Below are positions 24,116 to 56,334 of a stretch of DNA of 64,000 nt, one piece after another. The stretch covers positions 186,699 through 250,698 of the forward strand of contig CAJQIG010000002.1 of the NCBI GenBank assembly GCA_905478415.1, given 5' to 3'. This stretch comes from an uncultured Patescibacteria group bacterium (GTDB taxonomy: Bacteria > Patescibacteriota > Microgenomatia > UBA1400 > PJMF01). How positions within the stretch are numbered: the stretch's first letter is position 1; every line of letters begins with the position of its first letter. The notes below the pieces were generated by a model. It made no database searches, was not told where the DNA came from, and saw only the letters and a program-made list of their open reading frames with translations. Position numbers and translations under genes: made by a program.

Positions 24116-24125
24116 CTAATTTTGC

Positions 24126-24673: not shown

Positions 24674-24740
24674 ATGTATTAGTATTATATTATAAAATCA
24701 TTGTTTTGTAAATACTTTAATACTACTTTTGATATTTCTT

Positions 24741-24770
24741 GGGGATTAGTGAAGGATGTTCGAACCTATT
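24741..24770. repeat. Cassette-boundary repeat, copy B
   Basis: GGGGATTAGTGAAGGATGTTCGAACCTATT. It overlaps the stop codon of 24766..25044. Confidence 0.85.
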
Positions 24771-25044: not shown

Positions 25045-25046
25045 TG

Positions 25047-25307: not shown

Positions 25308-25371
25308 AAAGCCATTATAGTCTAATTAAAGCATTTATCAAGTACTAATCAAGGCTATTTTGTGTACTTTT

Positions 25372-25402
25372 CAGGGCCTAGTGAAAAATGTTGGAACCCA
25401 TA
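25372..25402. repeat. Cassette-boundary repeat, copy C (more divergent)
   Basis: AGGGCCTAGTGAAAAATGTTGGAACCCATAT. It lies 27 nt beyond the stop of 25430..26032. Confidence 0.75.
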
Positions 25403-25429
25403 TCAACTGTAAGTACATGACTTCATTTG

Positions 25430-26032
25430 CTATTTATCAAAAACAACAACAATGCCATCAATGCTTTTCTTAAATTCAGAACATCTTTGATCATTATATC
25501 TTTGGGTGATTTTATCCATTACTTTGGAATCAACCCCGTTAAATTCCCAAGAATCACTTAGCCTGCTGCTAAAAAATAATGTATCGAATTTAATGACAAT
25601 TTTAAGTGTTTTTAAACTATCAGGTGAAAGATTAAAAAACCAATGAATTAAATCATTAAAAGCAGCATGATGACAACCTTCTACAGGAGTTGTTTCCCCA
25701 CCCATTAACATTACTTCCAATAAACTTGCCCCATCTTTTGACAATAATGCCGTTAAGTCTTCGGGGTTGATAATATCATAGTCATGACCATATTTTTTTC
25801 GTCTTTCTAAAGCAATATTGGGATGATTGTTGAGATAGCTAGAGACAACATGTGGAGCATTTACATATAGACCCCAATGTGCATCTTTTGACTTAAAACC
25901 TGTTACACATATATTTAAATTATACCTTTGATCATCAAAAATTGCTTGCATAGCCTCTCGAGCAGGTTCTTTATAATAAACTTCTCTAATAGGGTGTATT
26001 GCTAAAGCAACGCTTAGATTTTCATTTAACAT
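25430..26032 (-). CDS. Hypothetical protein (single-gene cassette)
   Basis: 200-aa ORF with no recognisable motif. Confidence 0.5.
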   Translation of the reverse strand: MLNENLSVALAIHPIREVYYKEPAREAMQAIFDDQRYNLNICVTGFKSKDAHWGLYVNAPHVVSSYLNNHPNIALERRKKYGHDYDIINPEDLTALLSKDGASLLEVMLMGGETTPVEGCHHAAFNDLIHWFFNLSPDSLKTLKIVIKFDTLFFSSRLSDSWEFNGVDSKVMDKITQRYNDQRCSEFKKSIDGIVVVFDK

Positions 26033-26109
26033 ATTTACCTCTATTCTCTTCTAAAATATCTGTTTATATTTTTAATTCAGCATTCAGCAAACTTATATAA
26101 TAAATACAA

Positions 26110-26144
26110 GGGGCTTGTTACTTGAGGGATGTTCGAACCTATTT
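26110..26144. repeat. Cassette-boundary repeat, copy D (about 5-nt insertion in the left half)
   Basis: GGGGCTTGTTACTTGAGGGATGTTCGAACCTATTT. It lies 8 nt beyond the stop of 26153..26806. Confidence 0.8.
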
Positions 26145-26152
26145 TAAGCTCG

Positions 26153-26806
26153 TCACTTCTTCCTAGCAACCACCACAAAATATTTTAATACTCCAAAATA
26201 GCGAAGTGTTTTTTCTTCAACTACTATATTGCCCGCAGCCTTTATGTAATTTGATAGCTCTTTTTGTTTATACATCACATCATAAGGATGATCTAATATT
26301 ATTCTAAGAAGTTTACCTAGCGGAGATTCAAACGTTTCAATTGAAAAATCCTCCATAATTATCAGTCCCTTAGGTTTTAAAGTTCTCGTTATCTCTTTAA
26401 CTGCTTTCTTCCATTCTGGAATGTGATGAAGAACTCCAAAGTCAAACACTGCATCAAAGGTATTGTCTTTGAACGGCAATTTTGTCGTACTTGCTACTTG
26501 AAAATCAATGTTTTTATTAGAATACTTTCCTTGAGCGATACTAATCATTTTTGAATCAAGGTCAGTAGCAATGATTTTTCTGGGAGAAAAGTGCTTCATG
26601 ATAAGTTGACTACCATATCCACTACCACATCCAATTTCTAATGTCTTATTTATCTTCCCTGGATTAACTAACTTTCTGAGTCGTGGTATCTCCAAAGTAC
26701 TTTGAAACAACCGACGCATTGGGTTATTCATTAGTAGGAATTCAATAGTATTGAGAATCATGAATGTAGTATACCATGTGATTAAAAAGAAACCATTTAT
26801 AGGCAA
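26153..26806 (-). CDS. Class I SAM-dependent methyltransferase (true start probably internal, M16 or M26)
   Basis: LEIGCGSGYGS (motif I), ATDLD (post-I), FDAVFDFGVLHH, LKPKGLIIMED. Confidence 0.85.
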   Translation of the reverse strand: MPINGFFLITWYTTFMILNTIEFLLMNNPMRRLFQSTLEIPRLRKLVNPGKINKTLEIGCGSGYGSQLIMKHFSPRKIIATDLDSKMISIAQGKYSNKNIDFQVASTTKLPFKDNTFDAVFDFGVLHHIPEWKKAVKEITRTLKPKGLIIMEDFSIETFESPLGKLLRIILDHPYDVMYKQKELSNYIKAAGNIVVEEKTLRYFGVLKYFVVVARKK

Positions 26807-26821
26807 ATATTGCTGTTTTGC

Positions 26822-26851
26822 AGGGATTAGTGAACTATGTTGGAACCTATT
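26822..26851. repeat. Cassette-boundary repeat, copy E
   Basis: AGGGATTAGTGAACTATGTTGGAACCTATT. It abuts the stop codon of 26852..27178. Confidence 0.85.
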
Positions 26852-27178
26852 TTACCTTTCTCGTAAAACAAAACTCAATTTAATACTATCGTTTAACTCA
26901 ACTTTTTCTTTGTTTCTAACCTTTACTGGTAATGCAATGAAGTGTGTACCATCACCCATAGGGAGAAATGATGTTTTCCAACTACTGCTACCTACTTTTG
27001 CAGTTATAGCTACCAAACCCCTATCTAAAAGATGTTTAGTCTCATTCGTATATTTTTTAGGAACTCTCACATAATGCCAACCCTTTTTTTGGGGAAATAG
27101 TTCTACTTTTCCAGATATTGCAAATTTTTTCTTGGTTAATAATGGGGTCAAATTAGACATATAAAAAATATAGCCCAA
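26852..27178 (-). CDS. DUF1905-like small protein
   Basis: 108 aa. KKGWHYVRVPKKYTNE...WKTSFLPMGDGTHFIALPVKVR resembles the DUF1905 pattern. Confidence 0.5.
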   Translation of the reverse strand: MGYIFYMSNLTPLLTKKKFAISGKVELFPQKKGWHYVRVPKKYTNETKHLLDRGLVAITAKVGSSSWKTSFLPMGDGTHFIALPVKVRNKEKVELNDSIKLSFVLRER

Positions 27179-27180
27179 AT

Positions 27181-27510
27181 TTACATCTCATGAACAGGAT
27201 AAACACTCACCGTACTACCATCGTTATCCATTATCACTGGATGATCTTTTAATAAAGACTGGGCTGCTTCTAGGCTCTCAGCTTGAACTATTCCATATCC
27301 TGTTACATCATCTTCTTGAAGCTTTGAACCATCAACAGAAGTCACATGTTGAGGCCCAACTGGATTTCCAAAATCAACTACAGCATCAACATGAGTTTCT
27401 TTCCACTTCATCCAAACACCCATAACTCCTTGTACTTCTTCTTCTGACATTGACGCAAATTTTTCCATTGCTTCTTTAGGTGAGTGATAAATTAGAAGAA
27501 ACTTTTTCAT
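27181..27510 (-). CDS. YCII/DGPF-related domain protein
   Basis: 109 aa. The MKKFLLIYHSP... start and overall length/pattern resemble YCII-related proteins. Confidence 0.45.
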   Translation of the reverse strand: MKKFLLIYHSPKEAMEKFASMSEEEVQGVMGVWMKWKETHVDAVVDFGNPVGPQHVTSVDGSKLQEDDVTGYGIVQAESLEAAQSLLKDHPVIMDNDGSTVSVYPVHEM

Positions 27511-27573
27511 AGCGTGATCCTTTACTACATGTTTTTATTCTTTATCTTAACATAATTTAGAACCTAATTTATT

Positions 27574-27604
27574 GGGGATAAGTTAACAAAAAAAGAACTA
27601 TAAA
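27574..27604. repeat. Cassette-boundary repeat, copy F (degenerate), nearest the tRNA-Trp 3' end; an extra half-site lies at 27557-27570
   Basis: GGGGATAAGTTAACAAAAAAAGAACTATAAA compared with the consensus GGGGATTAGTGAAGGATGTTCGAACCTAT. TTAGAACCTAATTT lies just upstream. Confidence 0.5.
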
Positions 27605-27623
27605 TAGCTCTAATTCAAAACTG

Positions 27624-27694
27624 CAGGGCCAGAGGGAATCGAACCCCCGTCAAAGGTTTTGGAGACCTCTATTCTACCGCTGAACTATGGCCCT
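27624..27694 (-). tRNA. tRNA-Trp (anticodon CCA)
   Basis: Minus-strand cloverleaf: acceptor AGGGCCA/TGGCCCT, anticodon stem GAGGT/ACCTT with loop CTCCAAA, T-loop TTCGATT. No encoded CCA. Confidence 0.9.
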
Positions 27695-27808
27695 ACGTTG
27701 AGTTGTTAACGTTCAAATTGTATCATTAAGTGCTAGGTTTGCGGAGTAGAGGATTCGATTTTTTAGGCCTGTATCTTGAGAAATTTGCGGATGTTTGGTT
27801 AGCAACAC

Positions 27809-27837
27809 TTGACATAACATTAGTTATAGGATATAAT
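27809..27837 (+). promoter_or_regulatory. Consensus sigma70-type promoter
   Basis: TTGACA (27809-27814), a 17-nt spacer, then TATAAT (27832-27837). Confidence 0.75.
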
Positions 27838-27843
27838 GAAAAG

Positions 27844-28079
27844 TGTTGTGAGAGCGTACAGCAGACACTTCGTCTGCAACTACCTCGAGCAATACTGAAC
27901 CTTAACAGAATACTTACTTTTGTCTCCTTTAGACAGAAAGGACCGCGTATTTGTTGGAATCACCATAGGGTGAAACAGAGGTGTTACTCGAGAGAGTGGC
28001 GCTTGTGTTTCACTCTATTGTTTTGAGACCAGCGATTTTGTTGGTTTCCTTTTTGTTAATATTTTAAGGAGATAGAAAA
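27844..28079 (+). promoter_or_regulatory. Structured 5' leader of about 236 nt (candidate riboswitch/attenuator) upstream of 28080..28646
   Basis: Hairpins GCAGAC/GTCTGC and TGTCT/AGACA. Long-range CTCGAGCAATAC pairs with GTGTTACTCGAG. GTGAAACA/TGTTTCAC stem followed by TCTATTGTTTT. A strong Shine-Dalgarno (AAGGAG) sits only at the end. Confidence 0.45.
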
Positions 28080-44945: not shown

Positions 44946-45512
44946 ATGCACAGAAAAAAAATTGCTTTGTTTGGAGGTGCCTTTGATCCTCCGCATCTTG
45001 GTCACCAAAAAGTTGCCAGCGTTGTCACTGCCGATTTTATTGATGAAGTTTGGTTTGTGCCAGTCTTTACGCACCCTTGGGCAAAAAAGTATCATAAAGA
45101 AAGTTTGGTCCGGTATGAAGACCGGCTTCAGATGTTGGAATTTCTGGTAGCAAAGAATCAAAAAATTGCTGAGTATCGTCAAGTGAGTTTTACGTATCCA
45201 ACACTCAAATTTTTTGAAGAACGGTATCCAGATTACGAGTTTTCATGGATCATGGGTTCAGAGTATATTGGTCGATTTGACGCGTTTCTTGAGGGTCACC
45301 CGAAGCTAAAAAACTTTACCTTTTATATCTATCCCCGAAAAGGATATCCCCTAGAAAACCTGCACCCAAACATGGTGGGTTTGTCTCAGATGAAGGAGAT
45401 TGATATCTCTTCGACTCAAGTCAAAGAACTGATTGAAAAAAAAGAGTCATTGGAAGATGTTGTTCTTCCTGAAGTCGCAGCCTACATCGAGTCCCATCAG
45501 CTCTACCAGTAG
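44946..45512 (+). CDS. nadD: Nicotinate-nucleotide adenylyltransferase
   Basis: IALFGGAFDPPHLGH (HxGH) and ISST motifs. Confidence 0.9.
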   Translation: MHRKKIALFGGAFDPPHLGHQKVASVVTADFIDEVWFVPVFTHPWAKKYHKESLVRYEDRLQMLEFLVAKNQKIAEYRQVSFTYPTLKFFEERYPDYEFSWIMGSEYIGRFDAFLEGHPKLKNFTFYIYPRKGYPLENLHPNMVGLSQMKEIDISSTQVKELIEKKESLEDVVLPEVAAYIESHQLYQ

Positions 45513-45546: not shown

Positions 45547-46434
45547 ATGTCAAAACCACATACCCGCACTCCCGATACTCAATACCGAGAATTACTCGCT
45601 GAAATTTTAGAACATGGCGTCCGCACTCCTTCGCAGCAAGGGGTTGATGCTTTAACCTTGATTGGGCCAAAGCCACTCCATTTTAAGTTGAAAAATGGTT
45701 TTCCAATTATCACCGAACGAAAAATTAGTAAAAAAATTTGGAGCCAGGCTATTGGTGAGATTATTGGATTTATTAATGGGGCTCGTACCCAAGAAGAACT
45801 AGCAGAGTATGGTTGTAAGTGGTGGCATGCTTGGGTGACCGAAGCCAAATGTCATAAACGGGGTCTTGAAACTGGTGATATGGGTCCTGGAAGCTATGGC
45901 GCAGCTTTTCACGATTTTCCTACTGCCGAAGGGCCCACATTCAATCAATTTCAGAACATCATCGAGCAAATAAAAGAGAAACCCCAGCTTCGTACTCATT
46001 TCATTTCTCCCTGGATTCCTCAATACACTATTCGAGGGAAGGGAAAGCAACAAAAAGTCGTTGTTTGTCCGTGCCACGGTTGGATTCACATCAGAATTAT
46101 TGATGGAAAACTAACACTTCACATGTTCCAACGCAGTAGTGATACCCCGGTGGGGCTCCCTGCAAATTTGGCCCAGTATGCAGCGCTCACCATGATGATT
46201 GCTCAAGCTACCGGTTATGAAGCCTATGAGTATGTACACAGCTTTAGCGATGCTCATATTTATGTAGATCAACTTGATCATGTTAAAGAATTGTTAAAAC
46301 GAGAGCCAAAATCGCTTCCTGTTATGAAGATGAACCCCGACAAAAAAGACTTGTTTGAGTTTAGAGTCGAAGATTTTAAGTTAACCGAATATGACTACCA
46401 CCCAGGAATGTGGGACATTCCAGTAGCTATTTAG
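45547..46434 (+). CDS. thyA: Thymidylate synthase ThyA-family protein (divergent)
   Basis: CPCHG (catalytic Cys), FQRSSDTPVGLPANLAQYA, SDAHIY and a C-terminal PVAI. Several phosphate-binding Arg positions appear substituted (alignment by eye). Confidence 0.8.
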   Translation: MSKPHTRTPDTQYRELLAEILEHGVRTPSQQGVDALTLIGPKPLHFKLKNGFPIITERKISKKIWSQAIGEIIGFINGARTQEELAEYGCKWWHAWVTEAKCHKRGLETGDMGPGSYGAAFHDFPTAEGPTFNQFQNIIEQIKEKPQLRTHFISPWIPQYTIRGKGKQQKVVVCPCHGWIHIRIIDGKLTLHMFQRSSDTPVGLPANLAQYAALTMMIAQATGYEAYEYVHSFSDAHIYVDQLDHVKELLKREPKSLPVMKMNPDKKDLFEFRVEDFKLTEYDYHPGMWDIPVAI

Positions 46435-46446
46435 GAAAGTATCCAT

Positions 46447-46905
46447 ATGGTAGATAAACCTGTTGTAGATCTAGATAATTATAGAGAGCCAGAGCAACTT
46501 GAGGTTATGCAGCAAATCCAAAAGGATGGAGTTTGTCCGTTCTGCATGGATGAATTTACAAAACACCAAACTGAAGAGACATTATTCGATGGTAAGTACT
46601 GGCTTTTAACGTATAACCGCTGGCCCTATAAAAACACTAAAGTCCATTTATTGGCAATTTATAAAGAACACGCTGAGCATATTTTAGAAGTTGAGCCGGC
46701 CGCAGGGGCAGAGTTAATTGAGGTATTCCAGTGGGCTTCCACACACTTTACTGTGCCAGGTGGTGGTTTTGTAATGCGATTTGGAGATACTAATTATTCG
46801 GCGGGGAGTGTGCAACATTTGCATGCCCAGTTTATACAGCCTGATATTGATGCTGCTACTTACGAGCCGGTGCGGGTGAAGTTGGGGAAGAGTAGGAAAG
46901 AGTAA
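46447..46905 (+). CDS. HIT-superfamily protein with a variant histidine triad
   Basis: VQHLHAQFIQP (HxHxQ instead of HxHxH) and an N-terminal CPFC. Confidence 0.6.
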   Translation: MVDKPVVDLDNYREPEQLEVMQQIQKDGVCPFCMDEFTKHQTEETLFDGKYWLLTYNRWPYKNTKVHLLAIYKEHAEHILEVEPAAGAELIEVFQWASTHFTVPGGGFVMRFGDTNYSAGSVQHLHAQFIQPDIDAATYEPVRVKLGKSRKE

Positions 46906-47051
46906 CTACTTTGTTTTAATCCTATATTTTTTTAAAGTATGCTATATACTATAATTTAGCGAGTACTTGCGCATTTTTTGTGCGGGTATGTAGCTGTTTT
47001 TTAACAATACTTTAACCGCATGTTTTTCAAAAAAACGAGGAGGTTTTTTTT

Positions 47052-47513
47052 ATGAACGTGACCGTCAATTGGTGGAGATCATTAATTTTTGTAGCACTGA
47101 TGATGATGACAACTCTACTCTGTGTTCAAGGTGCGGAGTTTACAATTCACAGGACAATTCCTGCGAATTCATACAAGCAGTTAAATCGGGGTTATGTGTA
47201 TACCACAGAGTCTGGTGAACCTGTTTCGATGGAGTTATATTCGGACTCAGAGTTTGTGATTGAGTGTGATGGAGAAATACCGGCTGACAACCCTAATGGG
47301 CTTGAAGGTATTCCTCAGACTTCATACTTTAATTTCAAACAAACAGTGACTTGTGAGAGGTTCATTGTGTTGATTGGCTACCCATATCTCAACGCTCCAG
47401 GAATTGTTCAAGGGAATGATATTGTTCCCTTCAATAATATTTTTGGGATGATTATCTTGGGTTTGGTACTGATGGCTCTTTGGTTCTGTCTCTGTTTTGT
47501 TTGGAAGAGGTAA
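47052..47513 (+). CDS. Hypothetical secreted protein with a C-terminal TM anchor
   Basis: GAGG Shine-Dalgarno sequence, N-terminal signal-like LIFVALMMMTTLLCVQG, and C-terminal IILGLVLMALWFCLCFVW. Confidence 0.55.
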   Translation: MNVTVNWWRSLIFVALMMMTTLLCVQGAEFTIHRTIPANSYKQLNRGYVYTTESGEPVSMELYSDSEFVIECDGEIPADNPNGLEGIPQTSYFNFKQTVTCERFIVLIGYPYLNAPGIVQGNDIVPFNNIFGMIILGLVLMALWFCLCFVWKR

Positions 47514-47575
47514 CGCACTAAAGTTGGTGTAGAAGATATTGTTATATAGCAGCCCGGTTTATTCGGGCTGCTTTT

Positions 47576-48394
47576 TTATCCTAAATGCGCAAGTACCACT
47601 CCAGCTTGTTGTAATATAGTTTCCCCATCGAGCATGCTATAGCCCTCAGAAAAATACAGTTTTGAGATACCACTACATGCAATCAATTTTGCGCACACAG
47701 GGCAAGGAAAAGTGGTGACATACAGTTCGGCGCCATCGAGCGACAGTCCTTTTTTAGCCGCATCTGCAATCAGGGCAGCTTCGGCATGAATAGCGGTAGA
47801 AAGATCGATGTGTTCACCTTTGTGGAATGAATTGCGAGGGTCACTGTCAATGTATGGCGTGTAGGGAGAGGGCAAATGATGGTTGTGAGTTACCGAAATA
47901 ATCTCTCCCTTTTGAACCAGAGCGCAGCCAACTTGGCGCCACCAATCACTACTATGCTCAGCCACTTCAAATGTTGCTGCAGTTATGGAATCTGGTTCAT
48001 GTTGAGTTAGAGTGTTATCTCGATTCCACCGTAAAAATGTTTGGTTATATGTTATTTGCGCTTTTGAAAGTTTTTTTTCTGCCAGCCATAGGAAGATATC
48101 TTCATCTGGAAGTATGAGTTGTTGATTTTCAATAGCTAGTTGTTGGAGTTTTTTGGGATCTAAGAGAGAGATGTTTTTCTTGGGGAAGATTGCTCTGAGG
48201 CTTGTTAGGGCATTTTCTGGAGAGAGGGCTCTAATTTCTTTTCGCAAGTAATCAAAGTGGGTATCAATAAGTGCAATCATTTTTTCATCTAAGATATACA
48301 CAGTTGTTTCGTCAGTCAGTTGGGATACGAAGTCAAGATATCCTTTATGGAGAACGGGAAGGTAGAGAAGTGCTGCTGTTTTTGGAGTTGGCAT
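47576..48394 (-). CDS. dCMP/CMP deaminase-domain protein with an N-terminal extension of about 130 aa
   Basis: HAEAALIADA and TFPCPVCAKLI form the zinc motif HAE...PCxxC. The N-terminal region carries PVLHKGY (HxGH-like). Confidence 0.8.
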   Translation of the reverse strand: MPTPKTAALLYLPVLHKGYLDFVSQLTDETTVYILDEKMIALIDTHFDYLRKEIRALSPENALTSLRAIFPKKNISLLDPKKLQQLAIENQQLILPDEDIFLWLAEKKLSKAQITYNQTFLRWNRDNTLTQHEPDSITAATFEVAEHSSDWWRQVGCALVQKGEIISVTHNHHLPSPYTPYIDSDPRNSFHKGEHIDLSTAIHAEAALIADAAKKGLSLDGAELYVTTFPCPVCAKLIACSGISKLYFSEGYSMLDGETILQQAGVVLAHLG

Positions 48395-48954
48395 TAGTGA
48401 TGACTTTTAAGTTCTTCAAGTATTTCTTCCATGGCTGAAATAACTTTGTGAGATAATGTTTTACTAATTTTTTTAGCCATTCCAAGTTGGACAAGGCGTA
48501 GTTTGGCACTGGTTGAAGTGGTCGCCATAGGATCAAGCACAACTACTTCACCACAGATTTTTTTGAGTTTAGTCAGTTGCACTTTAGAATAAGTTTCTTT
48601 AGTGGTGATTAACACATTCGGTGAGATGAGACGAATCAGTTCCCATTTGGGTTCTGTTAGGTTTTTAATAACTGCATGATCAACGGCGGTAATGTAGGTA
48701 ACCATTTCGAGTCGTTCAGTTTCTGGGACAATGGGTCGATCTGGACCCTTTCGCTTCTTAATTTTTTCATCCGAATCAATCCCCACAAACAGGACATCAC
48801 CATAGGTTTTGGCAGTAGTCAGGTAGCGACCGTGTCCAATATGAAGCATATCAAAGGAGCCTTGTGTAAGGATAATTTTTTTACCTGCCTTGCGGTAGTG
48901 CTCGGCTAGTTGGGCAATATCGGAGTAATCGTTGACCATTTTTTCTTCGTTCAT
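48394..48954 (-). CDS. Cytidylyltransferase-fold nucleotidyltransferase (RfaE-II/TagD-like)
   Basis: ILTQGSFDMLHIGHGRYL (HxGH). Confidence 0.75.
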   Translation of the reverse strand: MNEEKMVNDYSDIAQLAEHYRKAGKKIILTQGSFDMLHIGHGRYLTTAKTYGDVLFVGIDSDEKIKKRKGPDRPIVPETERLEMVTYITAVDHAVIKNLTEPKWELIRLISPNVLITTKETYSKVQLTKLKKICGEVVVLDPMATTSTSAKLRLVQLGMAKKISKTLSHKVISAMEEILEELKSHH

Positions 48955-49013
48955 AGTACGTATCGTAGCATGCCGAAATCGTTTTGTCAGAGAATCTGTG
49001 GTAGAGTACTGGT

Positions 49014-49523
49014 ATGAAAGTTACCTTAATCGCAGCTGTCACCATTGATGGTTTTATTGCTCGGGATGATGTCCATTTATCTACTCGTTGGACTAGTAAA
49101 GAAGACACTCGTTTTTTTAGAAGGTTGTCTGCTAAAGTCGGCCATATGGTAGTTGGTTCAAAAACCTTTAAAACATTTGATAGAAAAATGGCTGGGCGAA
49201 AGATCTATGTGTACTCGCACAAACAAACAGTCGAAAATAGTTCTGAAAACGATATTGAGGTAGTGTCTGCCTCCCCCAAAAAATTTATTACAGACCTTGA
49301 ATCTAGGGGCGTTGCGGAAGTGCTGATCTGTGGTGGATCATCAATATATACTCTTTTTATGAAGGCAGGGGTTGTTGACCGGTTGTTGCTGACTCAAGAG
49401 TCTACTATTTTTGGAGCCGGTGTCCCGTTGTTTTCGGAGCCACTCAAGACAAAGGTCAGTTTAGATATTATTCACAACTTATCAGACCAAACAAAAGTTT
49501 TTGAGTATGAGGTGATGAAATGA
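49014..49523 (+). CDS. Dihydrofolate reductase-family protein (RibD C-terminal-type)
   Basis: MKVTLIAAVTIDGFIARDD...VVGSKTF...ICGGSSIY. Confidence 0.7.
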   Translation: MKVTLIAAVTIDGFIARDDVHLSTRWTSKEDTRFFRRLSAKVGHMVVGSKTFKTFDRKMAGRKIYVYSHKQTVENSSENDIEVVSASPKKFITDLESRGVAEVLICGGSSIYTLFMKAGVVDRLLLTQESTIFGAGVPLFSEPLKTKVSLDIIHNLSDQTKVFEYEVMK

Positions 49524-49960
49524 AAACATTAACCGTTACGTTTAAGCGTTTTGATACCTCTTTGCCAATTCCAGAATATAAAACTTCTGGAGCTGCAGCT
49601 TTTGATTTATATGCTCGTGAGGAAACAACGATCGCGGCTGGAAAAATTGGCTACATTCCACTCAATATTGCTTTACAGTTGCCCGAAGAGTACTGGGCAT
49701 TGGTATCGGCACGGAGTTCACTGCATAAACGCGGGCTACTTTTAGCCAATGGTATTGGTGTGGGAGACTATGACTTTAGAGGGCCGAACGATGAATATAA
49801 GGCTCCAGTTCTTAATTTTTCTGATGTTGAAGTGACTATCGAAAAGGGTGAGCGGGTAGTGCAGATGATTATTATGCATCGTCACCCAGTTTCTCTTGTC
49901 GAGCTGAAAGAATTTGAGGGTCAAAATCGTGGGGGATTTGGTACCACTGGTCGTAAATAA
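49520..49960 (+). CDS. dut: dUTP diphosphatase
   Basis: SGAAAFDL, GVGDYDFRG and NRGGFGTTG motifs. 4-bp overlap with the upstream gene. Confidence 0.88.
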   Translation: MKTLTVTFKRFDTSLPIPEYKTSGAAAFDLYAREETTIAAGKIGYIPLNIALQLPEEYWALVSARSSLHKRGLLLANGIGVGDYDFRGPNDEYKAPVLNFSDVEVTIEKGERVVQMIIMHRHPVSLVELKEFEGQNRGGFGTTGRK

Positions 49961-50103
49961 GTAGGTTACATATCCATTCTGTACATTTTTTGTTCAATAC
50001 TGCTCAATGTGCCCATACGGCTTCTTTTCATTTTGGGAGAGACACGAAATGTGGTAATTTAGAGCTTGCACACCCACTACATCTTGTGGTTTTATTGTAA
50101 GGT

Positions 50104-51114
50104 ATGTCTGCCGCAATTACGAAAGAAATCCGCCACACTTATTCACTTTCTGAGTCAGAATCTCTTTGGAAAAATGAGAAACCAGACCTGATTGTTTTCT
50201 CTTCTTCGAGTGTCCGCAAGGCACTCATTTTTTCTTGGGCACTGCATGATTTTTCTTTTGATCATGTTGATCAAATGGGTCTGACGATCAAAGGGCCAGG
50301 GTTAAAAGGTCTTACAACTCCAGCTGAGATTCAAGAGTATTTCAATACTTATATCTATAATGGTGATATGGCCCTTCGGCAACAAGTTTGCCTAGGTGAA
50401 TTCGAAGGGGTCCCCGTTTGGGCGTACCCTCAAACAACTGAATCAGATAAAAATGATGATCCCATAGCCGAGGCTCGTAACAAAGCAACTGCTTTTGCAG
50501 ATCAATTTGCTGGTCGAAATGTTTTTTTTATTGCCAGTGATGTGGTGGGCACATCTTCTAACTTTATTGATGAAGTAGGTACACAAATTAAAATGGGCAA
50601 GCCAATAAACTTTAGATCCAGTTTAGAGGTAGAAGCTGCAGAACAGGGATCTCAGACACCGTTATGGGAATCTCCCGAAGCCTTCATTGCTTGGTATAAG
50701 GAGGTTGTGTTTGAAGTTAACTCTACTTTAGGACACATTTCTGGAGTAGTCGTACTTGATGCAGCAGAACACCAACTGTATGCCACCGAAGTTGAACTGT
50801 ACCATCAGCTTTCAGCCGAACTACACCAACACTTAGAAGTGTTATCCGATGCGGGTTTAGGCGGTGCTTGGCAGCAGATACAAGCGTATTTACAAGATTC
50901 TTTAACCTTGCTGGGAGATGCTGTTGTAGACATTATCCCAACTCACGCTGATCCAGACGAAGAAACTACAGAACAGCTAGTCTTTGCTCATATGATTGGG
51001 GTTCAAGTTCTGGCATTTTTAGAACTTTTAGTGGGCGTACAGCGAGATGAAGTAGCGGTGCTCTCGGCAAAGAAACCAGTACAAAATCTTATTTTTGATG
51101 GGGAGAGTCGCTAA
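50104..51114 (+). CDS. Hypothetical protein with a divergent Maf-like (nucleotide pyrophosphatase) region
   Basis: LIVFSSSSVRKAL (compare Maf LILASxSPRRxxLL), FIASDVV (compare vigADTvv), GLGGAWQQIQ (compare DKAGAYGIQ). Similarity is weak. Confidence 0.4.
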   Translation: MSAAITKEIRHTYSLSESESLWKNEKPDLIVFSSSSVRKALIFSWALHDFSFDHVDQMGLTIKGPGLKGLTTPAEIQEYFNTYIYNGDMALRQQVCLGEFEGVPVWAYPQTTESDKNDDPIAEARNKATAFADQFAGRNVFFIASDVVGTSSNFIDEVGTQIKMGKPINFRSSLEVEAAEQGSQTPLWESPEAFIAWYKEVVFEVNSTLGHISGVVVLDAAEHQLYATEVELYHQLSAELHQHLEVLSDAGLGGAWQQIQAYLQDSLTLLGDAVVDIIPTHADPDEETTEQLVFAHMIGVQVLAFLELLVGVQRDEVAVLSAKKPVQNLIFDGESR

Positions 51115-51860
51115 TGTCACATCCATTTATTGAAGCTCGGGAAAAGGTCGATGAAATGCGTCGTCAAGCTAATTTACTCGAGGCTGTTGATCAGTTTGCA
51201 GCTCCCGAATTTTTACTTTCAATGGCAGTTACCGAGTTGCACGAGTATGCTCAGGAACAAGAAAAATATGGAACTCCAAACTACGATGTAGTAGCTACCA
51301 ATGGTGAGTTTGATGATATTGCTGTTTTCTTTTTTTCTTGGATCCAAACGTATGCCGCTAACGTCGATATGTTGCAAACAATTCATTCTGCTAATGGCTA
51401 TGGCAGTCATTCTGCAGCATTAGAGCAGTTGGGCCCCGTTATTCAAGATGCCGCAGATGATCTGCGAGCAGTTCCAGAAGTTATTACTCGGTTAGCTTCG
51501 ATTGGTATGCACATGCCAGTTCCGTATGTAGCTTTTGAAGGTATGGACAGGACAGTGAATAAAGTGCTTTCAAACCGTCCACCAGCGTTATATTCAGTCT
51601 TTTGCCCTAGTAAAGGTAGAGAATTGAAGGATGAGGAGTTAGTACGCAAGTACCAGCATTTGGAGAAGGGGACGCGCATGATTCGTAACAAGGTGGGGCG
51701 AACCTTGCAACCTGCAGATTGGCAGCCATACTATCAACAGTTGGTTGGTTGGACTCAGTCAGAAACGAACTTAACAGTACTCCAGCATCAACTGGCTCAA
51801 GGGATGCCGGTTACGCCAGTTCAATTAGAGAATGCTAAAACAAAGCTGTATACTAGCTAA
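51114..51860 (+). CDS. Hypothetical protein, possibly a MazG-like all-alpha NTP pyrophosphohydrolase
   Basis: Stop/start overlap with the upstream gene. ELHEYAQEQ...EFDDIAVFFFSWI loosely resembles the MazG EExxE/D helix pair. Confidence 0.3.
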   Translation: MSHPFIEAREKVDEMRRQANLLEAVDQFAAPEFLLSMAVTELHEYAQEQEKYGTPNYDVVATNGEFDDIAVFFFSWIQTYAANVDMLQTIHSANGYGSHSAALEQLGPVIQDAADDLRAVPEVITRLASIGMHMPVPYVAFEGMDRTVNKVLSNRPPALYSVFCPSKGRELKDEELVRKYQHLEKGTRMIRNKVGRTLQPADWQPYYQQLVGWTQSETNLTVLQHQLAQGMPVTPVQLENAKTKLYTS

Positions 51861-51902
51861 AAGTAAATAAAAATCAATAGAGTTGTGTAACGGAGGGAAC
51901 GT

Positions 51903-52544
51903 ATGAACGAGTCTACAAATAAAGGCTTTTTGCTTACGCTTGAAGGTGGTGAGGGTGGTGGAAAGACCACACAGATAGTGCGCCTCAAAGATCGCTTATT
52001 CAAAGAGGGTAAAGATGTGGTGGTGCTTCGTGAGCCGGGTGGAACGGTTATCAGTGAGCAAATTCGAGATGTAGTGTTATCTTCAAAAAATATTGGTATT
52101 GCCTTTACAGCAGAGGTACTTTTATTTCAGGCTGCTCGGGCACAAATTTATCGAGAAATTGTTTTGCCCTCACTTGAAGCTGGCAAGATAGTCATTATGG
52201 ATCGCTCGCGCGACAGCTCTGTAGTCTATCAAGGCATGGTCCGAGGTTTCGGGAAAGATATGATTGAAAAACTCAACGACCTCTCAACGAGAGATACTTA
52301 TCCAGATGCAACATTTTTACTTGATTTACCAGCTGAAATCGGATTACAAAGAAGACAGGAATCTGGCAAGCTTGATCGTTTAGATATGGAAGGAAATGAG
52401 TTTCATTTCAAAATTCGAAAAGCATATCTTGAGCTTGCCGAAAGCGATACTACTGGTCGATGGCAGGTGATTGATGCTTCAAAGTCTCTCGAAGAAGTTG
52501 AGGCTGCTTTGTGGAAAAAAACAAAACAAGTATTGGGTTTATAA
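51903..52544 (+). CDS. tmk: Thymidylate kinase
   Basis: LTLEGGEGGGKTTQ P-loop, DRSRDSSVVYQG (DR(Y/F) motif region) and a lid region. Confidence 0.9.
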   Translation: MNESTNKGFLLTLEGGEGGGKTTQIVRLKDRLFKEGKDVVVLREPGGTVISEQIRDVVLSSKNIGIAFTAEVLLFQAARAQIYREIVLPSLEAGKIVIMDRSRDSSVVYQGMVRGFGKDMIEKLNDLSTRDTYPDATFLLDLPAEIGLQRRQESGKLDRLDMEGNEFHFKIRKAYLELAESDTTGRWQVIDASKSLEEVEAALWKKTKQVLGL

Positions 52545-52584
52545 GCGTCTTCTCTTATAGATCGTTAGAGACTATCATGGTTCT

Positions 52585-53979
52585 ATGGTAGAAAAAAATT
52601 CACACGTTGCTAGCTTAGAAGAAGATGCACCTTCTGTAGAAGAAGAGTATGCGTCTTTTTCATTTTTGGCAACTACTTCACCAGATCAAACGTTTCGAGT
52701 AGCTCAAGAGCATCTAGAAGAAATTTTTGGAGATTTAACTGATAAAAAAGGTCGCAATCTATTGGAACACTATGGTGAAGCCGAGTGTTTATCTGTTTTG
52801 GCTCGGGTAGAGTATATTGCTCAAGAATTGCAAGCTGCGCTAGTTGACTCAGATATTTTAGAAAGTGAGTCAATTAGGAGCGCTGTTTCTGACAAAGTAG
52901 TCGAAAAAGTTCGTCGGTTTTTAATTGATCTTACGCCTTTGGGAAGTACTGCTCCAGATGCTGTTTGGTCTGAGTATGCTCCACAAGTTCGGGAACATGA
53001 TACGGAACGTGCGAAGAAATATGGATATGAGAGTGGGGGTGTCTACCTGAATCCCGAATGGGATCAGCTTGATCGTGCTTCTGAAAAAAGTAAGAACCAA
53101 CCAGAAACTCGGCAAGAAATTAATTTTTATCAGCGTTTGTTAACGCACGTGATGATGACTACTATTTTTGTTGAGAAGTTGGGAACTCAAATCAATGCGG
53201 TTCTAGAGCTAGCAAATCGTGATGGAACTGCCTTGGATGAAGGTGCGTTTGGTTACCTGAAAGAGAAGAATGGCCAGTATCGCACCATTGATCTTAATCG
53301 GATGAAGGTGCGAATGTTAGTGCACGATATTGGTCGTTGGGCGACGCATCACCCGGTTCTGCACGAAACGCTACCTGACTTACTAGCACATTATTTAGGA
53401 GTGACACCGCCCCTAATTCAATATGAATTCAATCATCAAGAGCGGTATTTCTCAGGAACAGTAGATACGGTGAATCCTCAAAACATACCGATTGAAGAAT
53501 CTCTGTTTCACTTTATTGATTTTATTGCGAAGCGTGATGATGAAAGCGATCTTGAGTCGGTAAAAGTTCGTCGCTTAGACCAATTGGCAGAACATGCTAT
53601 TGCTCGAGCCTCTGGATACAATGGTAAGCTTAAGGAATTTTGGGAGGCACAGCTGCGAATGCGGTTAGAGGGGGGCACGTTATCTCTTGAAGATTTAATT
53701 CGGAAAGCCTTGGAAATACTGAGTGATTCACATGACCCGGGTCAGGCAGAGTTCTATAAGATGGAGCTGCAGTTTCTGCAAAATATTTTGCCTTTTTTAG
53801 GAACACAAAAAGAACCAGGTTTATTTCAAACAGTCGGAACTTCTCTTGAGGAACAGATTGCGTTTGGAGAGCAGGAATTTGAACAACAGATCGATTCGGG
53901 TGAATTGCTTGGATATCAAGATATTCCGGTCAGTAGCGTAGTTGCTACTTCTATTACCACTGCTTTAACTGGAAAGTAA
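52585..53979 (+). CDS. Hypothetical protein with a possible HD-domain core
   Basis: 464 aa. LLTHVMMT...MLVHDIGRWATHHP is compatible with the H...HD motif. Confidence 0.35.
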   Translation: MVEKNSHVASLEEDAPSVEEEYASFSFLATTSPDQTFRVAQEHLEEIFGDLTDKKGRNLLEHYGEAECLSVLARVEYIAQELQAALVDSDILESESIRSAVSDKVVEKVRRFLIDLTPLGSTAPDAVWSEYAPQVREHDTERAKKYGYESGGVYLNPEWDQLDRASEKSKNQPETRQEINFYQRLLTHVMMTTIFVEKLGTQINAVLELANRDGTALDEGAFGYLKEKNGQYRTIDLNRMKVRMLVHDIGRWATHHPVLHETLPDLLAHYLGVTPPLIQYEFNHQERYFSGTVDTVNPQNIPIEESLFHFIDFIAKRDDESDLESVKVRRLDQLAEHAIARASGYNGKLKEFWEAQLRMRLEGGTLSLEDLIRKALEILSDSHDPGQAEFYKMELQFLQNILPFLGTQKEPGLFQTVGTSLEEQIAFGEQEFEQQIDSGELLGYQDIPVSSVVATSITTALTGK

Positions 53980-55305: not shown

Positions 55306-55680
55306 ATGGCAGACGACGCACAAACACCACCAGCACAAGATGACAAAAATCCACTTGATGTTTTAGAAGAACTTTTAAAAGATTCTGGATCGGGAAGTGG
55401 TTCTGGCTCCAGTGGTGGAGCTGCACCAGCTAAAGAAGGTGAGCTCACAGAAGAAGAGCTTGCTCAAAAACGGCTCGAGTTTGAACAAAAGAAGGCTGAC
55501 CAGGCGGTGGTAGATACCGCAGACATTGAAAAGCAGAAGGCATTGCTTGAAACTATTACGCAAACACCAGCCTATCAGGCTCGGGTTCAACAGGAAGAAG
55601 CAGCTGTTGAACAAACAGTTAAAAATGAAGAAGCTGCTGTAGGTTTTGACATAAAACAGCTTGAGCACGATAAAATTTAA
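55306..55680 (+). CDS. Hypothetical acidic low-complexity protein
   Basis: 124 aa. GSGSGSGSSGG tract and E/Q/A-rich helices. AAAAAGGA Shine-Dalgarno-like sequence upstream. Confidence 0.45.
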   Translation: MADDAQTPPAQDDKNPLDVLEELLKDSGSGSGSGSSGGAAPAKEGELTEEELAQKRLEFEQKKADQAVVDTADIEKQKALLETITQTPAYQARVQQEEAAVEQTVKNEEAAVGFDIKQLEHDKI

Positions 55681-55713
55681 GTCGATTTTTAGATACAAGA
55701 ACGGAGAAACGGT

Positions 55714-56334
55714 ATGCCCGGTCCAAAACCAGGTGGTTCCAGCACAGCTATGCGTCCAGGCGGTGGATTTAATTCCATGCCAGGTGGCATGTCCGAACAT
55801 ATGGACGATGCAGCGCTGCAGAGCGCTATGACCCAGAAGGCTGGATCGCAACAAGCTGGTCAAATTTCACCTCAACAAATGGCGCAAGCTGCGGCTGGAT
55901 CGTCTCAACAACAAAAAAAACCTCCTCGCGAAGTGGGGACGATCGGTGAAGAACTCCAGAGAGTTGGAGCTGATTTATTTGAAGGTGTCAAAGATTTATT
56001 TAGTTTTTCTGCTTGGTTTGGTATTAACTCTGACACGCTTTCTCCAGATGAAAAGCAACGGATGAAAGTGGTTCATCAAAATTTTCAAAAACTTGACCAA
56101 GAACAGCAAGCATATGCTCGTCAAAAGTATCAGGAAGAGCAACAGCGCAAAAAGATGCAAGAAGAAGAGGCCCGCCAACGAAGACAACAAGAAGAAGCTG
56201 CCCAAAGTCAGATGGTGATGCCAAGTGGTCCAAGTAAGGGAGCCCAAGGACCTGGTGGCAGTAAGAAACAAAAAGCTACCCAGATGCTTCAGGATAAGCG
56301 CAAGAAGCTGGGTGGTCCGGGGGATGTGAATTAA
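55714..56334 (+). CDS. Hypothetical G/P/Q-rich low-complexity protein
   Basis: 206 aa. GGAGAAAC Shine-Dalgarno-like sequence upstream. The N-terminus is G/P-rich. The C-terminus has a charged QEEQQRKKMQEEEARQRRQQEE helix. Confidence 0.45.
   Translation: MPGPKPGGSSTAMRPGGGFNSMPGGMSEHMDDAALQSAMTQKAGSQQAGQISPQQMAQAAAGSSQQQKKPPREVGTIGEELQRVGADLFEGVKDLFSFSAWFGINSDTLSPDEKQRMKVVHQNFQKLDQEQQAYARQKYQEEQQRKKMQEEEARQRRQQEEAAQSQMVMPSGPSKGAQGPGGSKKQKATQMLQDKRKKLGGPGDVN

Follow-up and report, generated by a model that had tools for sequence, protein, structure and literature searches.

The window analysed here is a 64,000-nucleotide stretch of DNA that carries, between positions 45547 and 53979, a compact set of genes for nucleotide metabolism (Table 1). 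All 11 ORFs listed for this interval were located at their coordinates, and matches to curated models are given by ThyA, the dCMP-deaminase domain, the cytidylyltransferase (CT), DHFR, dUTPase and Tmk. The setting is a Patescibacteria chromosome, with topA, recR, hpf, cysS and tRNA genes around the cluster, and two window proteins have exact copies on contigs as long as 658 kb. The host group, Patescibacteria/CPR, comprises tiny-celled bacteria.

Table 1. Features of the interval, with positions in the window and the basis of assignment.
Feature	Position	Strand	Basis
thyA, thymidylate synthase, Patescibacteria-specific clade	45547..46434	+	PF00303, TIGR03284, PDB alignments, 81-sequence residue census
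HIT-superfamily protein	46447..46905	+	Family profile vs PDB HIT, E=2e-5; PF01230
Lineage-specific 153-aa ORF, predicted secreted or membrane protein	47052..47513	+	No family match
GC-rich hairpin, 10-bp stem, then T-run; likely terminator	47548..47572	.	Terminator scan and direct sequence reading; consensus match only
dCMP-deaminase domain of 272-aa protein	47576..47998	-	PF00383 E=9e-16; HAE and PCxxC zinc motifs
CT', N-terminal domain of 272-aa deaminase; degenerate cytidylyltransferase fold	47999..48394	-	
CT, cytidylyltransferase-family enzyme, 186 aa	48394..48954	-	PF01467 E=3e-17
DHFR-family reductase, 169 aa	49014..49523	+	PF01872 E=2e-17; PF00186 E=5.5e-13
dut, dUTPase	49520..49960	+	PF00692 E=6e-21
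Maf-like NTP pyrophosphatase, YhdE type, 336 aa	50104..51114	+	ITPase/Maf fold and signature residues
MazG/DCTPP1-like all-alpha NTP pyrophosphatase, 248 aa	51114..51860	+	Invariant ExxE...ExxD; weak PDB matches
tmk, thymidylate kinase	51903..52544	+	PF02223 E=3.7e-43
Putative HD-domain phosphohydrolase, 464 aa	52585..53979	+	H...HD...H...D metal-ligand pattern

The dense clustering of nucleotide-metabolism genes described in the sequence-only reading is correct, by the family matches and by a core order (thyA-HIT-deaminase-CT) that is found again in 75-80 of the 80 related loci. Since this order is kept so widely and DHFR, dut and tmk lie near the core in 47-59 of the 80, the clustering is not chance. 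Core order and strands withstand rearrangements that displace every other neighbour; DHFR, dut and tmk are ordered differently from locus to locus. Stop/start overlaps occur at junctions in most loci. In the window the CT and deaminase genes overlap by TAATG and the dut and DHFR genes by ATGA, the DHFR-family gene diverges from CT across a 59 bp spacer, and HIT starts 12 nt downstream of thyA. The thyA-HIT and CT-deaminase operons converge on the hairpin, which is likely a terminator, judged by its match to the consensus. The adjacent 153-aa ORF, already set apart as not obviously related, matches nothing in family searches (curated models and PHROG included), has a homolog in none of the 80 related loci and is probably outside the system.

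Thymidylate synthase and the conserved core

ThyA matches PF00303 (E=3e-66), passes the ThyA equivalog cutoff of TIGR03284 (193.6 bits, cutoff 108) and finds E. coli ThyA by BLAST at E=1e-53, as against E=0.2 for T4 gp42. Its best PHROG is thymidylate synthase, and all its phage matches are so annotated. A comparison by eye had placed Q and T at the positions of E. coli R21 and R127 and had judged C146, R166, D169, N177, H207 and Y209 conserved; formal alignment (HMMER against PDB ThyAs, and MAFFT) confirms both points. Two of the four phosphate-clamp arginines are thus truly replaced, as Q30 and T150. As R127T is fixed in the clade (81/81) and R21 is mostly Q (69/81), dUMP binding by this ThyA must differ from that of the textbook enzyme. 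The best PDB matches include engineered L. casei TS chains with Thr at the R127 position (1bo7, ...YSRTLIVSAW). In mutagenesis of the L. casei enzyme, TS is reported to tolerate loss of R127 and, in part, of R21. The equivalents of C146, H147, R166, S167, D169, N177, D205, H207, E58, W80, W83 and Y94 are invariant in all 81 clade members, as are the folate-contacting residues, and the C-terminal PVAI is retained. N177 specifies uracil; homologs that act on dCMP, T4 gp42 among them, have Asp there. Two clade-specific insertions bear invariant basic residues. The clade census gives K101, K104, R105, H151 and R163 of this ThyA as invariant, K170 in 80/81 (one Arg) and Lys or Arg at position 167 in 80/81.

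The HIT gene adjoins thyA in 80/80 loci. Its product has a CPFC motif at the N-terminus and the triad H124-L-H126-A-Q128, the third position of which is Q in some family members and H in others. The window copy (HLHAQ) has no match when searched against Pfam HIT; PF01230 is matched by 39 of 41 family members, and the family profile (A1) finds solved HIT proteins in the PDB at E=2e-5, which upholds the earlier assignment as a variant-triad HIT protein.

One protein of the conserved four-gene core is an undescribed deaminase that also carries a degenerate cytidylyltransferase domain. Of its 272 residues, 143-249 form the dCMP_cyt_deam domain, whose profile (A2) matches PDB dCMP deaminases (4p9c, E=1e-21; 2hvv and T4 1vq2, E=3e-19); the extension that had been noticed is a CT-fold domain N-terminal to it. 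This CT' shares the fold of the neighbouring CT, and a motif at the position of its nucleotide site is conserved; HxGH is altered to H16-x-G18-Y19, and FLRW occupies the place of the RTxGISTT motif. In CT, predicted before as a cytidylyltransferase-fold enzyme and recovered as CTP_transf_like, the HxGH and TSTSxKxR motifs are intact and the catalytic-motif residues invariant. It scores 99.9 bits against TIGR02199, under the cutoff, and matches ECT (3elb, E=2.5e-16), HldC (5x9q, E=1e-11) and also TagD in the PDB. An independent gene fusion, P0165, joins CT and CT'-deaminase in a single protein.

Pathway neighbours and putative hydrolases

The family searches agree with the earlier naming of a DHFR-family protein, a dUTPase and a thymidylate kinase. 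The first scores better with RibD_C than with DHFR_1, and in 55-56 of the 80 loci its gene is no more than 10 kb from thyA. The dUTPase falls slightly under the NF001862 cutoff (93.9 bits, cutoff 103). Tmk, encoded in 47-48/80 related loci, is by its family match an ordinary thymidylate kinase.

The 336-aa protein, previously called weakly Maf-like, matches neither Pfam nor NCBIfam. Its predicted structure, a low-confidence model (pLDDT 56), has the ITPase/Maf fold, and the Maf signature given in PMC3899018 is conserved at Ser, Arg/Lys, Asp and Lys, as is the Arg of the subfamily; Arg13 is Lys, and the equivalents of Glu33, Lys52 and Gln153 are assigned only by eye. Predicted fold and signature residues together identify it as a divergent, insertion-rich Maf of the YhdE type with a helical extension at the C-terminus. 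The gene of the 248-aa protein follows through a real TAATG stop/start overlap (51114), in line with the coupling proposed earlier. Here a MazG/DCTPP1-like assignment is supported weakly but consistently: E41, E44, E65 and D68 (ExxE...ExxD) are invariant, the top six PDB matches are all of MazG type (DCTPP1/RS21-C6, YpjD, 5ie9; E=0.02-0.3) and PF03819 is matched by 1 of 13 members (E=0.03). The MazG-like domain comprises the N-terminal ~95 aa, and the C-terminal extension of ~150 aa is conserved. For the HD motif suspected in the 464-aa protein there is weak evidence, at the level of the motif: H188, H247, D248, H260, E261 and D312 are invariant in 14 sequences, three of ten core segments of the family match PF01966 (best E=0.006) and the PDB yields a single match, to a Cas10 HD domain (E=0.27). 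Both the MazG and the HD assignments have E-values above 0.005. The three house-cleaning genes occur in 5-14 of the 80 related loci (MazG-like 7-9, HD 5) and are poorly conserved, lineage-specific accessories outside the conserved core.

Function of the island

The cluster looks like ordinary dTMP synthesis, not an exotic DNA-base pathway. We consider it probable that this chromosomal CPR island supplies dTMP and dTDP from cytosine and uracil deoxynucleotides and trims pyrimidine NTPs, and does not serve base hypermodification. The two-domain CT'-dCMP deaminase would convert dCMP to dUMP (supported at domain level) and Dut would convert dUTP to dUMP (supported at family level). ThyA, with its family match and full set of catalytic and specificity residues, would then form dTMP and release dihydrofolate, the loss of R21 and R127 presumably being offset by the clade-invariant basic residues of the two insertions. 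Tetrahydrofolate would be regenerated by the DHFR-family protein and dTDP made by Tmk. Among the accessories of the window's lineage, the MazG/DCTPP1-like enzyme probably yields dCMP from dCTP, by analogy with DCTPP1, from which thymidylate synthesis in human cells draws dCMP (PMC7162842); dTTP/UTP or modified pyrimidine NTPs are the probable substrates of the YhdE-type Maf, and the HD-motif protein is a putative nucleotide hydrolase. CT may pair with the degenerate CT' as the two CT domains of ECT do, which would couple CTP/dCTP binding or turnover to deaminase activity. Several observations count against this reading: CT and HIT, the tightest-linked partners, are without an obvious role in the textbook pathway, two of the four canonical clamp arginines are absent from every member of the ThyA clade, the DHFR-family protein scores higher with RibD_C, and the Maf, MazG and HD assignments come with a low-confidence model or high E-values.

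The sequence-only reading had proposed that an altered ThyA, NTP pyrophosphatases and a dedicated kinase make or sanitise a non-canonical pyrimidine, as phages do with 5-hmdU, 5-hmdC and derivatives. The R21Q and R127T changes on which it drew are genuine and have become fixed in the clade, HIT and CT enzymes are closely linked to thyA, and the cluster holds Maf-like and MazG/DCTPP1-like enzymes, whose characterised relatives favour 5-modified pyrimidine NTPs (PMC3899018; PMC7162842). ThyA itself argues otherwise, keeping N177, the methyl-transfer and folate residues (invariant in 81 members) and PVAI, with an equivalog score and, at BLAST level, no similarity to T4 dCMP hydroxymethylase (E=0.2). 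Hydroxymethylases do not produce DHF, and DHFR is needed only where dihydrofolate is produced; the co-located DHFR therefore implies DHF production, that is, true reductive methylation. The kinase is an ordinary Tmk, the pyrophosphatase genes are missing from most related loci with the same ThyA, and family and PHROG searches found no hypermodification-type kinase, no glycosyl-, aminoacyl- or pyrophosphoryl-transfer gene and no phage gene. Given these results and the chromosomal setting, hypermodification is not supported and is very unlikely.

The tight linkage of CT and HIT could also mean that the core acts on an activated nucleotidyl conjugate in place of free dCMP and dUMP. CT would make (d)CMP-phospho-X from (d)CTP, the CT'-deaminase would bind it via CT' and deaminate it, the clamp-remodelled ThyA would methylate the uracil conjugate and the HIT enzyme would free dTMP or dUMP. 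HIT enzymes do cleave or transfer nucleoside-monophosphate conjugates, all four genes are strictly co-conserved, CT and CT'-deaminase are fused in P0165, CT is under selection as an enzyme since all its catalytic motifs are kept, and ThyA is changed exactly at the 5'-phosphate site, where the new invariant basic residues lie. The scheme is entirely inferential, however, and we know of neither a precedent nor a candidate X; deamination of free dCMP is simpler, nearby dut and tmk favour free dUMP and dTMP, and TS is reported to tolerate loss of R127 and, in part, of R21. We regard it as improbable. It is also rather unlikely that CT and HIT are unrelated to dTMP synthesis (serving, for example, envelope-precursor or NDP-sugar/alcohol metabolism) and are kept beside thyA and the deaminase only by operon inertia in small compact genomes, with CT' a purely structural or allosteric relic. 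The closest characterised CT relatives are indeed envelope or lipid enzymes (HldC/RfaE-II, TagD, ECT, CCT), and the neighbourhood is partly fluid, because the DHFR, dut and tmk order varies. Yet the core outlasts rearrangements that move every other neighbour, stop/start overlaps are present in most loci, the CT and CT'-deaminase genes have fused independently, and CT' shares the CT fold with a conserved motif at its nucleotide site.

Relation to known systems

The island for dTMP supply resembles the bacterial ThyA-FolA cycle (dCMP deaminase of ComEB/Cd type, Dut, Tmk): the families are the same, the chemistry is presumably so, and a ThyA with full catalytic and uracil-specificity residues is adjoined by DHFR-family, dUTPase and thymidylate-kinase genes. 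Unlike in that cycle, all genes lie within one 8-kb island, ThyA has R21Q, R127T and two insertions with invariant Lys and Arg, the deaminase has a CT-fold domain in addition, and CT and HIT genes are obligatory neighbours. ECT (PDB 3elb/4xsv) has tandem CT-CT domains in one chain, whereas the two CT-fold units here are separate polypeptides in most genomes and the second has HxGY for HxGH, has lost RTxGISTT and is fused to a dCMP deaminase.

YhdE-subfamily Maf proteins are dTTP/UTP/m5UTP pyrophosphatases (PMC3899018) of ~190 aa; the 336-aa protein shares their predicted fold, signature residues and subfamily Arg and differs in its large insertions, C-terminal helical extension and Lys for Arg13. 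The 248-aa protein has ExxE...ExxD aligned to that of DCTPP1/RS21-C6 and YpjD, and its gene lies by a dCMP-to-dTMP pathway, matching the dCMP supply by DCTPP1 (PMC7162842), but similarity is marginal (E 0.02 or worse), the ~150-aa C-terminal region is extra and the protein is confined to a very narrow phyletic range.

Phage hypermodification modules (T4 gp42 dCMP hydroxymethylase; dUMP hydroxymethylases with 5-hmdU kinases and transferases) likewise group NTP pyrophosphatases and a nucleotide kinase around a ThyA-superfamily enzyme; in contrast, the locus here has N177 (Asp in gp42), the C-terminal closure motif, DHFR and a cellular chromosome, and transferases were not found in the family and PHROG searches. 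The anti-phage dCTP deaminase (NF041025; PADLOC dCTPase, E=3e-21, residues 196-264) shares the zinc-deaminase core, at 74.5 bits against a cutoff of 400. Only that core matches; the N-terminal CT fold lies outside the defence model, and the housekeeping linkage to thyA is clade-wide.

Gene order and genomic setting

The window comes from the chromosome of a 'Pacebacteria'-type member of the Patescibacteria (CPR) and has no phage-like character. Genes on either side of the cluster in the ORF listing are topA, a nadD-like gene, recR, hpf and cysS. There are tRNA genes in the window, and two of its proteins recur as identical copies on contigs up to 658 kb. The 80 best-matching loci from species-representative genomes, which form the synteny set (ThyA at least 64% identical), are almost all from Patescibacteria MAGs. 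For loci L002-L005, L029, L053, L056, L060 and others the title names Pseudomonadales, Methylococcaceae, Limisphaerales, Kapaibacterium or TM6; their gene content is clearly CPR-type, with ThyA 65-86% identical, and they are probably taxonomic or binning mislabels.

All eleven ORFs that the sequence-only reading had described in the cluster are found in place, as are its compact junctions: a TAATG overlap at the Maf-like/MazG-like and CT/deaminase junctions (CT being the 186-aa cytidylyltransferase), an ATGA overlap at the DHFR/dut junction and a gap of 12 nt from thyA to the HIT gene. The thyA-HIT and CT-deaminase operons converge, and in the space separating them there is a strong hairpin with a T-run. 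Curated models name the ThyA, dCMP-deaminase domain, CTP_transf_like (186 aa), DHFR/RibD_C, dUTPase and thymidylate kinase families.

The 'ten-gene cluster' exists here as described, but what is conserved across loci is a four-gene core only: thyA and HIT, with the deaminase and CT on the opposite strand, in constant order and orientation over the 80 loci. HIT is present in 80/80 loci, the deaminase in 78/80 and CT in 75-77/80, and CT and the deaminase overlap or lie no more than 25 nt apart in 70 of 75 loci. The genes for DHFR (55-56/80), dut (57-59/80) and tmk (47-48/80) usually lie within 10 kb of thyA, on either side of the core and in arrangements that differ among loci, and the genes of the 336-aa, 248-aa and 464-aa proteins are detectable in 14, 7-9 and 5 of the 80 loci, respectively. 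From these counts the cluster is a four-gene core surrounded by standard dTMP genes in changing arrangements and by lineage-specific accessories. The eleventh ORF, encoding a predicted 153-aa membrane or secreted protein, had been judged not obviously related, and it is probably not part of the system: it has no homologue in the 80 related loci and no family match, and thus either was inserted in this lineage or is a spurious ORF.

Features of the window, with positions and strand
Feature	Positions	Strand	Description
tRNA cluster	17743-18116		Thr(GGT), Tyr(GTA), Thr(TGT)
Low-GC stretch	24000-28000		GC 0.32-0.35 vs ~0.42, GC skew reversed
YafQ-like toxin	24766-25044	-	weak match; low-GC stretch
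RHH/NikA-like protein	25047-25307	-	low-GC stretch
Class-I methyltransferase	26153-26806	-	low-GC stretch
DUF1905 and YCII proteins		-	small ORFs; low-GC stretch
tRNA-Trp	27623-27694	-	end of low-GC stretch
nadD-like gene	44946-45512		directly upstream of thyA; CTP_transf_like/HIGH nucleotidyltransferase, PF01467 E=5e-15
Cluster under study	45547-53979
153-aa ORF	47052-47513		lies where the thyA-HIT and CT-deaminase operons converge
Deaminase	47576-48394	-	272 aa, CT' domain at N-terminus
CT	48394-48954	-	186 aa
336-aa protein	50104-51114	+	Maf-like
248-aa protein	51114-51860	+	MazG-like
464-aa protein	52585-53979	+	HD motif
Low-complexity ORFs	55306-56334		two adjoining ORFs after hpf; Gly/Ser/Gln/Glu-rich (GSGSGSGSS; long Q/E-rich stretches)

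The low-GC stretch probably represents a small island, either accessory or gained by horizontal transfer.

The thymidylate synthase and the hypermodification reading

The ThyA homologue, encoded at 45547-46434, belongs to PF00303 (E=3e-66) and passes TIGR03284 (193.6 bits, cutoff 108.35); its score stays under the cutoffs set for the narrower NF0024xx equivalogs. Its four-arginine 5'-phosphate clamp (R21, R126', R127' and R166 in E. coli) is incomplete; HMMER alignment against solved ThyAs and MAFFT alignment with E. coli ThyA agree with the earlier by-eye alignment in placing R21 on Q30 and R127 on T150. Among 81 clade members the R127 column is T without exception (81/81), the R21 column holds Q in 69, P in 6, R in 4, A in 1 and K in 1, the R126 column is R or K, and R166 is retained. 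A complete clamp is typical for ThyA, not strictly defining. The equivalents of the catalytic Cys, R166, D169, N177, H207 and Y209, which had appeared conserved, are all present in the window protein. C146, H147, R166, S167, D169, N177, D205, H207, E58, W80, W83 and Y94 are invariant in 81/81 members, the Y209 column is Y in 50 and F in 31, and the protein ends in PVA(I/V), as it does in E. coli. The invariant residues together with this C-terminal end argue for purifying selection on a working uracil-specific, folate-using methylase.

The L. casei chains in the PDB that match best are engineered proteins with Thr at the R127 position (e.g. 1bo7, ...YSRTLIVSAW). In the L. casei work of Santi and Stroud, phosphate-site mutants reportedly keep activity and substitutions of R179 and R23 are tolerated, the indispensable arginine being, it is said, R218 (E. 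coli R166). The clade has two insertions, both adjoining the active-site region. One (residues 99-107) has invariant K101, K104 and R105 (KxxKRGL); the other (residues 157-170) has an invariant P-Q-Y-x-x-R163 followed by K/R167, Q169 and K170, the last being Lys in 80/81 members. H151, directly after T150, is invariant. From these alignments we infer that the phosphate site is remodelled, not missing, with the insertion residues and H151 as candidate compensating phosphate ligands. By family and residue set the protein is a ThyA, predicted to convert dUMP and CH2-THF to dTMP and DHF.

The sequence-only reading had taken the altered clamp, in the company of NTP pyrophosphatases and a kinase, as pointing to phage-type pyrimidine hypermodification. 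This interpretation is not supported, and there is no sign here of a hypermodified DNA base. Neither a hydroxymethylase, a 5-hm-pyrimidine kinase nor base-decorating transferases are found in the cluster by Pfam, NCBIfam or PHROGs; the cluster kinase is an ordinary Tmk, the ThyA residues are of the uracil type and the setting is chromosomal. N177 is the uracil-specificity residue, and Asp at this position serves cytosine recognition in dCMP hydroxymethylase. BLASTP of the window protein gives E=1e-53 vs E. coli ThyA and E=0.2 vs gp42, the T4 dCMP hydroxymethylase. A three-way alignment shows gp42 with Asp in the N177 column and without the C-terminal closure segment. A gp42-type dCMP hydroxymethylase was accordingly rejected for the window ThyA, which keeps N177 as do all 81 clade members. 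Its best PHROG is thymidylate synthase (4e-69), with no hydroxymethylase family among the matches. Of the phage tblastn matches, the 40 listed, sampled across the ranking and out of 4077 records, are all at most 36% identical, and 38 are annotated thymidylate synthase (one is hypothetical, one unannotated). Hydroxymethylases do not oxidize folate, and the DHFR-family gene alongside argues for real dihydrofolate production, i.e. reductive methylation. The analysis thereby removes a false lead, and the cluster is best read as a normal grouping of dTMP/dTTP biosynthesis genes, joined in the window lineage by three putative accessory nucleotide hydrolases.

The CT'-deaminase, the neighbouring cytidylyltransferase and the HIT protein

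Residues ~137-272 of the deaminase are a bona fide dCMP-deaminase domain with invariant H203, E205, P230, C231 and C234 (HAE and PCxxC zinc motifs), and its profile finds 4p9c of cyanophage S-TIM5 (1e-21), 2hvv of S. mutans and T4 1vq2 (3e-19) in the PDB. The N-terminal domain CT' (residues 1-132) has no Pfam or PDB match at the sequence level and carries the conserved motifs Y-x-P-V-x-H-x-G-Y, K-D/E-I-R-A-L, PDED and FLRW. An exhaustive HMMER search gathers CT'-bearing proteins into 309 representative clusters at 50% identity, nearly all of 270-300 aa with CT' at the N-terminus. The anti-phage dCTP deaminase was considered and rejected; its match covers the deaminase core alone, at a score well short of the cutoff, and the N-terminal domain is a different one.

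The predicted model of CT', built on hits of the representative search (pLDDT 92), shows a CT/PPAT Rossmann-like fold, its matches being TagD (9.4), 3glv (9.2), Fom1 CyTase (9.1), CCT (8.4), HldC (8.2), ECT (8.0), PPAT (7.6) and CCT-alpha (7.2). By sequence, the neighbouring CT matches this same group: ECT, the ethanolamine-phosphate cytidylyltransferase (2.5e-16), HldC (1e-11), 3glv, TagD and CCT. CT itself scores 63.5 bits against PF01467 (cutoff 21) and stays below the cutoff of the RfaE-II equivalog (99.9 bits, cutoff 181.5); H38, G40, H41, T146, S147, T148, K151 and R153 (HxGH; TSTSxKxR) are invariant. The catalytic motifs are lost from CT', which has H16-x-G18-Y19 for HxGH and FLRW for RTxGISTT. 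These replacements mark a degenerate copy, and we file CT' as a degenerate CT-fold domain, not an active cytidylyltransferase. hhalign of the CT' family vs the CT family gives a probability of 1%, the sole aligned segment being VLHKGY against MLHIGH, so the predicted fold, not sequence, is what points to a relationship between them. The nadD-like gene, which lies within 10 kb of thyA in 45/80 loci at varying distance, side and strand, brings the CT-fold units here to three within 4 kb.

A metagenomic protein of 469 aa, P0165, joins CTP_transf_like, CT' and dCMP deaminase, in that order, in a single chain. On contigs ERZ1426824 and ERZ1426813, from two samples, its neighbours are ThyA and a 315-aa DHFR-domain gene; a metagenome scan finds no further relatives. 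ECT is a tandem of two CT domains, so on the simplest structural reading CT and CT' would pair likewise. By this analogy, pairing would tether a (d)CTP-binding enzyme to the deaminase.

The 152-aa HIT protein (HLHAQ) has no Pfam match on its own. A profile of 41 homologues finds PDB HIT proteins at E=2e-5, 39 of the 41 match PF01230, and CPFC, H124 and H126 are invariant in the family. The HLHAQ motif and HIT membership noted earlier therefore stand, but the 'variant triad' reflects polymorphism among family members, since the third position, Q in the window protein, is Q or H by genome. In the usual HIT slot beside P0165 lies the 315-aa protein with a DHFR_1 domain, a length that fits a HIT-DHFR fusion (152+169 aa); such a fusion, if true, would link the HIT protein with the folate/dTMP cycle.

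Putative accessory hydrolases and a proposed pathway

Searches with the three hydrolase-like proteins return close relatives only, without names or Pfam domains, and PHROG and PADLOC give no match for any of them. The sequence-only reading had called the 336-aa protein weakly Maf-like, the 248-aa protein possibly MazG-like and the 464-aa protein a possible HD protein, and sequence profiles and, for the 336-aa protein, a model lean the same way, weakly so for the 248-aa and 464-aa proteins. Maf proteins have the signature S-R-E-K-D-K and the YhdE subfamily the motif R-T-Q (PMC3899018). Automatic alignment of the 336-aa protein with E. coli YhdE pairs S10/S36, R13/K39 (Arg to Lys), D70/D146 and K82/K166, with the positions in the 336-aa protein invariant. 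Subfamily R12 falls on R38 (Arg in 15/16), the T71 column is T, V or A, and E33/E113, K52/K127 (AREKA vs ARNKA) and Q153/Q257-258 are by-eye matches only. The model, built from a shallow alignment (pLDDT 56), suggests a Maf/ITPase fold, and the profile finds RdgB/YggV alone in the PDB (E=1.2). We regard the protein as a putative YhdE-type Maf, divergent and rich in insertions.

In the 248-aa protein E41, E44, E65 and D68 (ExxE...ExxD) are invariant, and the top six PDB matches of its profile (mouse and human DCTPP1, YpjD and 5ie9 among them; E=0.02-0.3) are all MazG-type all-alpha pyrophosphatases aligned on exactly these motifs; one of 13 homologues matches PF03819 (E=0.03). The N-terminal domain is accepted as putatively MazG/DCTPP1-like. 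The C-terminal ~150 aa (~95-248) are conserved and match no known family; N94, G95, S129, K150, N154, R169, H182 and R191 are invariant across this part of the protein. The 464-aa protein has invariant H188, H247-D248 (LHDIGRW), H260-E261 and D312, a set that fits H...HD...D metal ligands. PF01966 is matched by 3/10 core segments (best E=0.006), and the full-length and core profiles find the Cas10 HD domain alone in the PDB (E=0.27-1). It is likely, though weakly supported, to be an HD phosphohydrolase. hhalign of the three families vs single E. coli YhdE, MazG and Dgt is insignificant in all three cases; a single-sequence template is too weak for such a comparison.

A pathway can be proposed in which family assignments support five steps: the deaminase would convert dCMP to dUMP, Dut would convert dUTP to dUMP, ThyA would form dTMP and DHF from dUMP, the DHFR-family protein would return DHF to THF, and Tmk would phosphorylate dTMP to dTDP. 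Around these, the MazG/DCTPP1-like enzyme may supply dCMP from dCTP by analogy with human DCTPP1, which feeds dCMP to thymidylate synthesis (PMC7162842). The YhdE-type Maf may trim dTTP/UTP or remove 5-modified pyrimidine NTPs, which would be sensible in organisms living on what they scavenge from nucleic-acid breakdown. The HD protein may act on a (d)NTP or (d)NMP, and the CT/CT' pair may couple (d)CTP to the deaminase.

Beside ordinary clustering stands the bolder view that the Patescibacteria core is an undescribed dTMP route, or control of that route, in which CT is catalytically required through a conjugate or through gating; we hold this to be improbable. Under the gating option an ECT-like CT/CT' heterodimer would gate the deaminase by CTP or dCTP turnover. 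Under the conjugate option CT would build a (d)CMP conjugate, to be deaminated and then methylated by ThyA, with the product released by HIT. That ThyA acts on such a conjugate is the one reading to account for changes placed precisely at the 5'-phosphate site; we regard it as unlikely. Ordinary dTMP/dTTP biosynthesis clustering is the reading we retain.

The genomes of Patescibacteria are tiny, a dependence on scavenged nucleotides is widely assumed, and the balance of their dNTP pools bears on the episymbiotic lifestyle and on cultivation attempts. The cluster shows them investing in a complete dC/dU-to-dT line and in putative pool-sanitizing hydrolases. Its oddities are a ThyA that naturally, and throughout a clade, does without two of the four textbook clamp arginines, a large dCMP-deaminase family (the 309 clusters) with a degenerate cytidylyltransferase domain, and constant CT and HIT partners beside thyA. 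The literature searched, with incomplete coverage, gives no description of this CPR thyA/deaminase/CT module, and the Patescibacteria-wide thyA-HIT-(CT'-deaminase)-CT core is an undescribed variant. Classical dCMP deaminases solve the dCTP/dTTP feedback problem by an allosteric site; if CT and CT' do regulate or feed the deaminase, this would be a new solution to the same problem.
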